Part shown: positions 45,953 to 48,356 of the stretch, piece after piece
Position numbering within the stretch: the stretch's first letter is position 1
Layout: each line of letters begins with the position of its first letter
Origin: Escherichia coli
GTDB lineage: Bacteria; Pseudomonadota; Gammaproteobacteria; Enterobacterales; Enterobacteriaceae
Assembly (NCBI RefSeq): GCF_013315695.1
Contig: NZ_CP054353.1
Strand: one strand, 5' to 3'
DNA length: 64,000 nt
Notes under the pieces: model-generated
Database searches by the model: none
Told to the model about the DNA's origin: nothing
What the model saw: the letters and a program-made list of their open reading frames with translations, nothing else
Position numbers and translations under genes: made by a program

Positions 45953-46298
45953 TGTAATGTTACCTGTTTAATGTTTTTATAAATATCGCAGCTGATGTTC
46001 ACAGAAAAAGAATCGATATTAATAAAAATAAGTTTGTTTTCTGAAGTAGTGAAAATAGCGGATGGTGAAAGATATTAATATCAAAAATCGCTCATTATGG
46101 ATATAACGATGCCCCCGGGGAGAAAATGACTTCCACGCCTTCTACCATACATTCTTGTTGTGCGGTATGTAATTATTCTACGCTGTTGGTATCGGTGCGT
46201 TTGTTAATCATCTGGTTAACCAGCCACAAAAAGCCATTGAGAAAGTTATTGATTCTACATGGAATTATTATATTTCTAATCCCTGGTTTTTAAAAGTT

Positions 46299-46514
46299 GT
46301 GCATAGTGAAAATCAAAGTAAAGGTGTGCATTATGCAAAATCACAGCGTCTCTTAGAAATTAACCATACGCACTTGCAGTTAATGGAATCCTTATTGGAT
46401 GAAGGGAAGAAACACAATATTTTTAAGCCAGATAGCGACCCATTGCAGGTGAATATTAATATTGCTGCGCTTGGGGGATATTATTTGATCAACCAGCATA
46501 CGCTTGGCCTGGTT
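46299..46514 (+). pseudogene. ytfA: ytfA-like remnant of a TetR-family regulator (C-terminal ligand-binding portion only), followed by the IS left end
   Basis: ORF 46299..46790 begins with TetR C-terminal-like sequence and no HTH, then reads through the IS left-end hairpin; the distal part is not genuine coding sequence. Confidence 0.45.
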
Positions 46515-46574
46515 TATCTGGTGCGCCGTAAAACCCCGTCCTTCAGGGCGGGGATATACGGCGCGGTTTTCCAC

Positions 46575-47006
46575 CTAACCAGGTGTTTGCTGTTGTTCAA
46601 TGTATTGACGGATGGCGGATATTGGCGCACCTCCGCAGCTACTGGCAAAATAGCCAGGACTCCACAAAACGCCTTTGTAGTAATACCTGACTGCAATATC
46701 TGGTCGATCTCGTCGCAGTCACCTACCCGATACGCCTTTGAGGCTGTTTACCAGACTGGATATCGCCAGTTTGGGAGGATAGTTAATTAACAAATGGACG
46801 TGATCTGGTTCGCCATCCATTTCAACCAGTTCAGCTTCAAAATCAGCACATACATTTGAAAAGTAAGTGCGTAGTTTTTCTGTCGCGTCATAGTCAAAAA
46901 TCTGACGTCGGTATCTGGTGACAAAGACCAGGTGAACATGCATCAGGAAAACACAATGCCTTCCCCGTCGGATATCGGTTTCTTTATTCACAGACCAAAG
47001 TATCAT
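46575..47006 (-). pseudogene. tnpA: IS200-type Y1 (HUH) transposase TnpA interrupted by an in-frame TGA at codon 96
   Basis: ORF track 46719..47006 gives 95 aa (...[27 protein letters not shown]); the same frame continues past the TGA as [44 protein letters not shown], the conserved TnpA C-terminus. Confidence 0.7.
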
Positions 47007-47013
47007 TTGGCCT

Positions 47014-48222
47014 GTGAAACGACTACAGGCATTTAAATTCCAGTTAAGACCCGGTGGTCAACAGGAGCGTGAAATGAGGCGCTTCGCAGGCGCATGCCGT
47101 TTCGTTTTCAATCGTGCTCTGGCGCTTCAGAATGAGAATCATGAGGCCGGTAATAAATACATCCCTTACGGGAAAATGGCTTCCTGGCTGGTTGAGTGGA
47201 AAAACGCCACTGAAATGCAATGGCTTAAAGATTCGCCCTCACAGCCATTGCAACAGTCACTGAAAGACCTTGAGCGGGCTTACAAAAACTTCTTCCAGAA
47301 GCGGGCTGCTTTTCCCCGATTCAAAAAGCGGGGACAGAATGATGCATTCCGCTACCCGCAGGGCGTTAAGCTCGATCAGGAAAACAGCCGTATTTTTCTG
47401 CCGAAACTTGGCTGGATGCGCTACCGGAACAGCCGTCAGGTCACGGGTGTTGTGAAAAATGTCACTGTCAGCCAGTCCTGCGGTAAGTGGTACATCAGTA
47501 TTCAGACAGAAAGTGAAGTATCCACTCCGGTTCACCCTTCAGCATCAATGGTCGGGCTGGATGCTGGCGTGGCTAAACTCGCCACGCTGTCAGATGGCAC
47601 AGTCTTTGAGCCTGTAAACAGTTTTCAGAAAAACCAGAAGACGCTGGCGAGACTTCAGCGACAGTTAAGCCGCAAGGTCGAATTCAGCAATAACTGGCAG
47701 AAGCAGAAACGCAAAATACAGCGACTGCATTCCCGTATCGCAAATATCCGCAGGGACTACCTTCACAAAGTCACAACGACCGTCAGCAAAAACCACGCAA
47801 TGATAGTCATTGAGGATTTGAAGGTCAGCAACATGTCAAAGTCAGCAGCGGGTACGGTCAGCCAGCCGGGGCGCAATGTCCGGGCAAAATCAGGTTTAAA
47901 CCGTTCGATACTGGATCAGGGCTGGTATGAAATGCGCCGCCAGCTTGAGTACAAGCAGCTCTGGCGTGGCGGTCAGGTGCTTGCTGTTCCGCCAGCGTAC
48001 ACAAGCCAGCGTTGCGCGTGCTGTGGTCATACAGCGAAAGAAAATCGCCTGTCACAAAGTAAATTCAGATGCCAGGCATGTGGATATACAGCGAACGCTG
48101 ATGTAAATGGCGCTCGTAACATTTTAGCGGCGGGGCACGCCGTTCTTGCCTGTGGAGAGATGGTGCAGTCAGGCCGCTCGTTGAAGCAGGAACCCACCGA
48201 AATGATTCAGGCGACAGCCTGA
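47014..48222 (+). CDS. tnpB: TnpB (IS605 OrfB-family RuvC-like RNA-guided nuclease)
   Basis: ORF 47014..48222, 402 aa, GTG start; C-terminal zinc finger CACCGH...CQACG and RuvC-III-like ADVNGARNI. Confidence 0.85.
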
Positions 48223-48356
48223 ACGAAGCAGGGATCCACGTCCTTCAGGGCGTGGAGGATGTCAACATATCAGTATGGTTTCCCCCCAGGCACTGGAAGC
48301 CAGACGTAAGGTCATCAAAGAGACGCTCCTTAGCTGGCTTTTGGTTGATCCTTCAT

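Follow-up and report, generated by a model that had tools for sequence, protein, structure and literature searches.

The ytfA-site IS609 copy of an Escherichia coli genome carries the common tnpA null allele Leu96(TTA)>opal(TGA), probably imported by recombination

The window analysed here, a stretch of 64,000 nucleotides of Escherichia coli DNA, contains an insertion sequence whose transposase gene tnpA is broken by a stop codon within its reading frame. The locus raises the question of whether this stop is a genuine lesion of a gene that is complete in all other respects, what it leaves of the function and mobility of the element, and by which route it came to reside in this copy.

The element is assigned by its sequence to IS609 of the IS200/IS605 family. 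In a 1753-bp alignment it shares 97.7-99.3% identity with copies annotated as IS609 or IS609-family, and the copies occupying the same site in other genomes are labelled 'IS200/IS605-like element IS609 family transposase' in RefSeq. Only one IS609 copy is present within the window. The ends of the element were fixed by comparing an occupied ydcL-ydcO site with the empty ydcL-ydcO site of the genome EcPF7, which placed the insertion directly 3' of TTTAT without a target-site duplication. The resulting features of the element and of the disrupted gene are as follows:

46224..46517, plus strand: left part of ytfA, the TetR-family gene disrupted by the insertion; its annotation extends a few bases into the IS
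46513..46517, plus strand: target pentanucleotide TTTAT, directly 5' of the left end, with no duplication at the right end
46518..48265, plus strand: whole IS609, 1748 bp, the length of the IS609 annotated in K-12 MG1655
46518..46582, plus strand: left-end subterminal imperfect hairpin (-22 kcal/mol, z -4.9), identical in the EcPF7 copy
47014..48222, plus strand: intact tnpB (insQ) of 402 aa, a predicted RNA-guided nuclease gene with the motifs GLDAG, IEDL and NADVNGARN
48235..48265, plus strand: right-end hairpin (48235-48255), a stem-loop resembling the inner left-end hairpin, and terminus ...GGATGTCAA
48266..48373, plus strand: right fragment of the disrupted ytfA, the first approximately 16 nt of which are CATATCAGTATGGTTT

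As a result of the insertion, ytfA, a TetR-family gene located between yjfZ and ytfB, is broken in two; the empty joint left by an excision of the ytfA-site copy would read GGCCTGGTTTAT/CATATCAGTATGG. Since IS609 is present at the ytfA site in 4281 of 5426 complete E. coli genomes (about 79%), the insertion is an old one. The left flanks at the ytfA, yajI and gltX sites end with TTTAT and that at the yedK site ends with CTTAT. Terminal inverted repeats are absent from the element, the ends of which contain subterminal imperfect hairpins with the similar stem-loops CCCCGTCC/GGGCGGGG and CCACGTCC/GGGCGTGG. The ATG start of tnpA and the GTG start of tnpB (47006-47014) are divergent and only 7 bp apart, so that the promoter of each gene must sit inside the coding sequence of the other.

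The tnpA gene is located on the minus strand (47006..46575), and its codon 96 is TGA (46719-46721). The list of open reading frames contains a 95-aa ORF (46719..47006, minus strand) that closes with this TGA, and the translation of 47006..46560 revealed 47 further open codons in the same frame, followed by the natural TAG at 46575-46577. The features of the interrupted gene are:

46575..47006, minus strand: IS609 tnpA (Y1/HUH transposase), a pseudogene in the window, with 143 codons and the natural TAG stop
46794-46802, minus strand: HUH motif H69-V-H71, upstream of the TGA
46719..46721, minus strand: premature opal codon TGA, codon 96 of tnpA; TTA (Leu) in intact same-site copies
46578..46718, minus strand: in-frame segment past the stop, codons 97-143, with Tyr135 (46602-46604) and Gln139; positions 79-121 of the Y1_Tnp profile

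The 95-aa fragment matches positions 1-78 of the 121 positions of the Pfam profile Y1_Tnp (PF01797) with 90.9 bits, and restoring codon 96 extends the match to positions 1-121 with 140.6 bits. As the restored protein covers the whole profile, the match of the segment past the stop represents real homology and is more than a chance similarity. The original prediction, which held that tnpA is interrupted by a single in-frame TGA and that the conserved C-terminus continues in the same frame, is borne out by the open codons and by the completed domain. The same-site copies of CFSAN051542 and EcPF7 have TTA (Leu96) at this position and are annotated with an intact 143-aa TnpA (WP_000604959.1), and the sole difference between tnpA of the window and tnpA of these two genomes is the T>G exchange in codon 96, in agreement with the claim that the gene had not been truncated by deletion. 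It had also been proposed to look in other copies for TGG or another sense codon; a sense codon was found in the two same-site copies, namely TTA and not TGG. The annotation of the window should accordingly list tnpA (46575..47006) as a pseudogene containing an internal stop, name the element IS609 and show ytfA as disrupted. As a minor observation, the ytfA' frame (46299-46790, plus strand) enters the IS exactly antisense to tnpA and in codon register with it; on the plus strand the TTA allele reads TAA, a stop, and the TGA allele reads TCA, which makes the truncated TetR-fusion ORF 23 codons longer. This lengthening is probably meaningless.

The consequence of the stop for the protein was assessed by aligning the repaired TnpA with the TnpA proteins of IS608 (2a6m) and ISDra2 (2xm3), both of known structure. 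The alignment placed H69-V-H71 on the HUH motif, Tyr135 on Tyr127 of IS608 and Gln139 on Gln131 of IS608, and opposite residue 96 the homologues of known structure have Ile or Leu. The likeness to the C-terminus of IS608 TnpA that had been noticed before was reproduced in the alignment with 2a6m. In the established mechanism of this family, reported by Ronning (2005) and Barabas (2008), this tyrosine acts as the nucleophile and sits on the C-terminal helix. A complete catalytic set of HUH motif and C-terminal tyrosine is absent from any one ORF of the window copy, with H69 and H71 located before and Tyr135 past the TGA. Translation would stop after residue 95 and would keep the HUH metal-binding motif, and the 95-aa product would be devoid of the C-terminal helix that bears the nucleophilic Tyr135 and the third metal ligand Gln139. 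Such a product is expected to be unable to cleave and rejoin the single-stranded ends, and the copy would not move by itself. Since the stop removes Tyr135 and Gln139, normal decoding of the window copy is predicted to give no active transposase. The earlier description of the gene as nonsense-inactivated is consistent with the position of the stop in front of both residues, and the window copy is, to judge from its sequence, a member of the IS200/IS605 family by descent with an inactivated transposase gene.

The relationship to IS608 of Helicobacter pylori (TnpA structures 2a6m and 2vjv) includes the Y1/HUH fold family, with an E-value of 1e-18 and aligned HUH, C-terminal tyrosine and glutamine residues, as well as hairpins in subterminal position, a short specific target sequence 3' of which the element inserts, and a tnpB gene next to tnpA. 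The sequence similarity to IS608 is only distant, however, and the two genes of IS608 are co-oriented and its target is TTAC, whereas the genes in the window are divergent and the target is TTTAT.

The distribution of the stop was determined with 81-mers centred on codon 96 in a TGA and a TTA version, for which exact matches were counted. The exact TGA 81-mer was detected in 1670 of the 5002 matching records; for the exact TTA 81-mer the count was 2308 records. About a third of complete E. coli genomes carry the TGA allele, and in many E. coli genomes a TGA copy coexists with a TTA copy. The identical TGA was found at six different insertion sites: at ydcL-ydcO in MG1655 (annotated pseudogene yncK, b4578), ATCC 8739 and E. 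coli C, at yedK in strain 504211, at yajI in IAI39 and SMS-3-5 along with a frameshift, at yeaR and yidH in metagenome contigs, and at ytfA in the complete genomes C4 and 1919D62 (annotated 'internal stop') and in the assembly GCA_048332895.1. Among recorded proteins, the 95-aa product of the ydc-type copy comes from at least 1000 contigs, the variant of the window from 16 and the intact 143-aa protein from 489. The stop is an already known and routinely annotated null allele, the same as that of K-12 yncK; the original prediction had missed that the allele is widespread and annotated. A literature search for yncK returned only unrelated papers.

The IS609 copy of K-12 MG1655 (1503161-1504908; tnpA remnant yncK, b4578; tnpB insQ, b1432) is the same element of 1748 bp, alignable with the window copy from end to end at about 97.7% nucleotide identity, with divergent tnpA and tnpB genes, a TTTAT target and TGA at codon 96. 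It differs from the window copy in its site (ydcL-ydcO and not ytfA), in about 40 SNPs and in having CAG at codon 144. The ytfA-site copy of K-12 (DH5alpha), in contrast, has TTA at codon 96 and a tnpA gene broken elsewhere by a 1-bp deletion that causes a frameshift.

Several minor observations were made on other IS609 copies. The natural tnpA stop TAG (46575-46577) is polymorphic, with CAG in many copies, in which the frame runs into the left end and the flank; a 183-aa 'IS609 TnpA' has been recorded for 435 contigs, and CAG-type genes are labelled 'missing C-terminus' in RefSeq. Moreover, IS609 adjoins yidH in about 305 genomes and is located at ydcL-ydcO in the K-12 group. The TTA copy of ATCC 8739 (at about 23.3 kb) is not counted as a ytfA copy, because this coordinate adjoins yidH in other dnaA-started genomes. 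The ydcL-ydcO, yajI and yidH sites are useful as presence/absence markers for dating IS609 insertions.

The origin of the allele in the window copy was traced by comparison with EcPF7, the genome nearest to the window. The flanks of the element differ at 7 positions in 35.8 kb, and over 37.6 kb there are 19 differences, 12 of which lie inside the IS. In a Poisson test in which the IS was counted as 1753 bp (TTTAT plus element), these 12 differences compare with an expectation of 0.34 (P about 4e-15). Eleven of them are confined to one stretch of tnpB:

47430..47905, plus strand: tnpB stretch in which 11 of the 12 differences between the element and its EcPF7 counterpart are located; its alleles are those of the yajI-site copy of IAI39 and SMS-3-5

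The twelfth difference is the TGA, which matches the allele common in other IS609 copies. The yajI-type tnpB alleles of the window include 47680G and 47691T, and this haplotype occurs in 94 records. Within 47430-47905 EcPF7 has yidH-type alleles and CFSAN051542 has a set of its own, the remaining element and the flanks being near-identical in the three genomes; the different allele sets of EcPF7 and CFSAN051542 in the same stretch point to frequent exchange between IS609 copies. The stretch looks like a local hot spot of such exchange. In C4 and 1919D62 the TGA at ytfA is linked to further donor-type SNPs, and the window's combination of an EcPF7-type haplotype with the TGA recurs in an independent assembly, GCA_048332895.1. 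A point against recombination is that 710 bp with EcPF7-type alleles separate the TGA from the tnpB tract, so that a separate short tract has to be assumed for the TGA, shorter than about 350 bp and delimited by positions 46615 and 46965.

The account of a chromosomal IS609 copy fixed at ytfA, with the common null allele Leu96(TTA)>opal(TGA) in tnpA, likely imported by recombination, and unable to move by itself, is regarded as very probable. The allele would most likely not have been made in place and would have been copied into the ytfA copy by short-tract homologous recombination, a route that we infer from the pattern of alleles. The donor would be another IS609 copy that already had the TGA, either a paralogue (gene conversion) or imported E. 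coli DNA. If so, inactivating alleles are moved by recombination between IS copies and do not arise by new mutation alone.

A donor copy was sought by synteny in EcPF7, where the ydcL-ydcO, yajI and yidH sites all proved to be empty and two further IS609-like matches were present. The empty sites are:

L007, 32685-32720: empty ydcL-ydcO site of EcPF7
L011, 9712-10251: empty yajI site of EcPF7
L028, 30100-30160: empty yidH site of EcPF7

Likewise, no complete genome contains the exact ytfA-flank-plus-TGA haplotype of the window (the best has 1 mismatch in 481 bases) or the exact interior of its IS (the best has 12 mismatches in 1331).

The lack of a donor at the three EcPF7 sites would fit an independent T>G point mutation in the ytfA copy, the identity of which with the allele at other sites would be coincidental. 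Such an event would also account for the finding that tnpA departs from the EcPF7 gene by the TGA alone, with the flanking informative sites keeping the EcPF7 haplotype. It is nevertheless regarded as unlikely, since, of the 1287 substitutions that are possible in tnpA, 59 of them nonsense, just one produces this exact change, the rate in the flanks (7 per 35.8 kb) predicts about 0.08 mutations in tnpA, and 11 of the 12 differences held by the IS are clearly imported alleles. An assembly artefact, in which the TGA and the tnpB tract would represent a consensus mixing reads of several IS609 copies, is less probable still and can be given very little weight. Its appeal is that the differences from EcPF7 in the element are confined to a repeated sequence and all match the alleles of other copies, and that a related draft contig, that of GCA_048332895.1, ends within the IS, at a point corresponding to window position 47448. 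The same assembly, however, independently has the same haplotype with the TGA, the complete genomes C4 and 1919D62 have the annotated stop at ytfA, and mosaic IS609 copies are the rule even in complete genomes, as is apparent from the differences between EcPF7 and CFSAN051542 in the same tnpB stretch.

With the allele as a probable recombination import, the mobility of the window copy can be considered. The original prediction that the element is probably immobile holds for autonomous movement only, barring read-through of the UGA. Neither end differs by a single base from its counterpart in the EcPF7 copy, the TnpA of which is intact. A TnpA provided in trans can mobilise elements of the IS200/IS605 family, and by virtue of the identical ends such mobilisation of the window copy would be possible in principle. 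As tnpB and both ends are unaffected, the element would persist by vertical inheritance as a carrier of TnpB, non-autonomous and yet, in principle, mobilisable by the TnpA of another copy. It had further been argued that copies in the same genome with the identical TGA and signs of activity would speak against inactivation; copies with the identical TGA proved to be common at other sites, and no evidence of their activity was found. The closest pair of IS609 copies at different sites has 12 differing positions, and no copies at different sites that differ by fewer than 12 bases were detected. Additionally, IS609 accounted for 0 of 758 new insertions in mutation-accumulation lines of K-12 (PMC5009759). 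IS609 thus appears to be nearly static in E. coli. As a side observation, the sequence of K-12 contains two IS609 copies, at ydcL-ydcO (with TGA) and at ytfA (with the frameshift), and Table 1 of the same study counts one.

The presence of the allele at many sites would be explained if the TGA were leaky, that is, if UGA-C were read through by tRNA-Trp to yield a little full-length TnpA (L96W) and the element were attenuated but autonomous. UGA followed by C is a weak stop context in E. coli, as reported by Poole, Brown and Tate in 1995, and a small amount of full-length L96W protein may be formed; a literature search for a citable figure of UGA-C read-through in E. coli gave eukaryotic work only. 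The occurrence of the allele at six insertion sites and the 47 codons past the stop, which have stayed open in every TGA copy free of a frameshift, are in line with such read-through. We nevertheless consider it a very unlikely explanation. The five variants past the stop, too few to give any power to detect constraint, are non-synonymous and synonymous in a ratio of 4:1, with a pN/pS of 1.24 at very few sites and no sign of constraint, and TGA copies gather further lesions such as the yajI frameshift. Furthermore, the absence of near-identical copies at different sites indicates that there was no recent movement, the K-12 copies carry a TGA and a frameshift and yielded no insertion among the events cited above, and residue 96 is Ile or Leu in the solved homologues. 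The notion that UGA encodes selenocysteine is effectively refuted, as the RNA fold downstream of the UGA is insignificant (z -1.6) without a SECIS-like structure, the predicted stem already begins to involve the UGA, whose GA is paired in it, instead of lying downstream of this codon, and the homologues have Leu or Ile and the sister copies TTA at this position.

In contrast to tnpA, the tnpB gene of the window copy is intact, and its product matches PF12323, PF01385 and PF07282, representing the HTH, OrfB_IS605 (RuvC) and zinc-ribbon/TNB domains, with scores above all cut-offs. Among 16 full-length IS609 copies, a sample in which TGA copies are over-represented, none had an interrupted tnpB, and the pN/pS of the gene was about 0.42. 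The TnpB protein of the window is homologous to that of ISDra2 (E-value 6e-54), the element of Deinococcus radiodurans (TnpA structure 2xm3; TnpB structures 8bf8 and 8exa) that is the source of the TnpB/omega-RNA model. The two elements share homologous TnpA and TnpB proteins and a pentanucleotide target, TTGAT in ISDra2 and TTTAT in the IS609 of the window; they differ in that ISDra2 belongs to another species and is distant in sequence. By analogy with ISDra2, a TnpB/omega-RNA function may be ascribed to the window copy, and CATATCAGTATGGTTT, the approximately 16 nt at the start of the right ytfA fragment, would be the guide of the putative omega-RNA. A scan for omega-RNA families in Rfam gave no match reaching the gathering score; the matches obtained in 48095-48278 (plus strand) were HgcC (24.7 bits), RAGATH-18 (29.5 bits) and sot0042 (17.4 bits), all of them below their gathering scores. 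These weak matches overlie the 3' end of tnpB and the right end, the place expected of an omega-RNA. A published survey of TnpB elements in E. coli (PMC9956272) leaves the tnpA stop unmentioned.

With its intact tnpB and ends and no working tnpA, the window copy resembles the tnpB-only derivatives of the IS200/IS605 family (IS1341-type and other non-autonomous copies). It is distinguished from them by a tnpA gene that is fully present, one base from intact and not deleted. One null allele is common to IS609 copies at six chromosomal sites, and tnpB is open in every full-length copy examined, a pattern in keeping with the prevailing idea that elements with TnpB survive longer than their transposases. 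The pattern could be quantified in E. coli population data and overturns nothing. A more far-reaching and unlikely proposal is that Leu96>opal is a null (or, as UGA-C, leaky) allele that was spread repeatedly by gene conversion among a few old IS609 copies and retained because it silenced or attenuated transposition while tnpB and the omega-RNA stayed intact. If true, IS609 would provide an observable intermediate between autonomous IS605-type elements and tnpB-only elements retained by the host.

Outside the element, the comparison with EcPF7 revealed one extra base (AAA versus AA) at window position 54247, at about codon 19 of qorB (ytfG, minus strand), which may reflect a true frameshift or, alternatively, an error in sequencing the homopolymer. 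The extra base shifts the qorB frame after ...HYVIES, and the longest ORF starts with a GTG at 54287 and comprises 281 aa, compared with the 286 aa of the EcPF7 gene.
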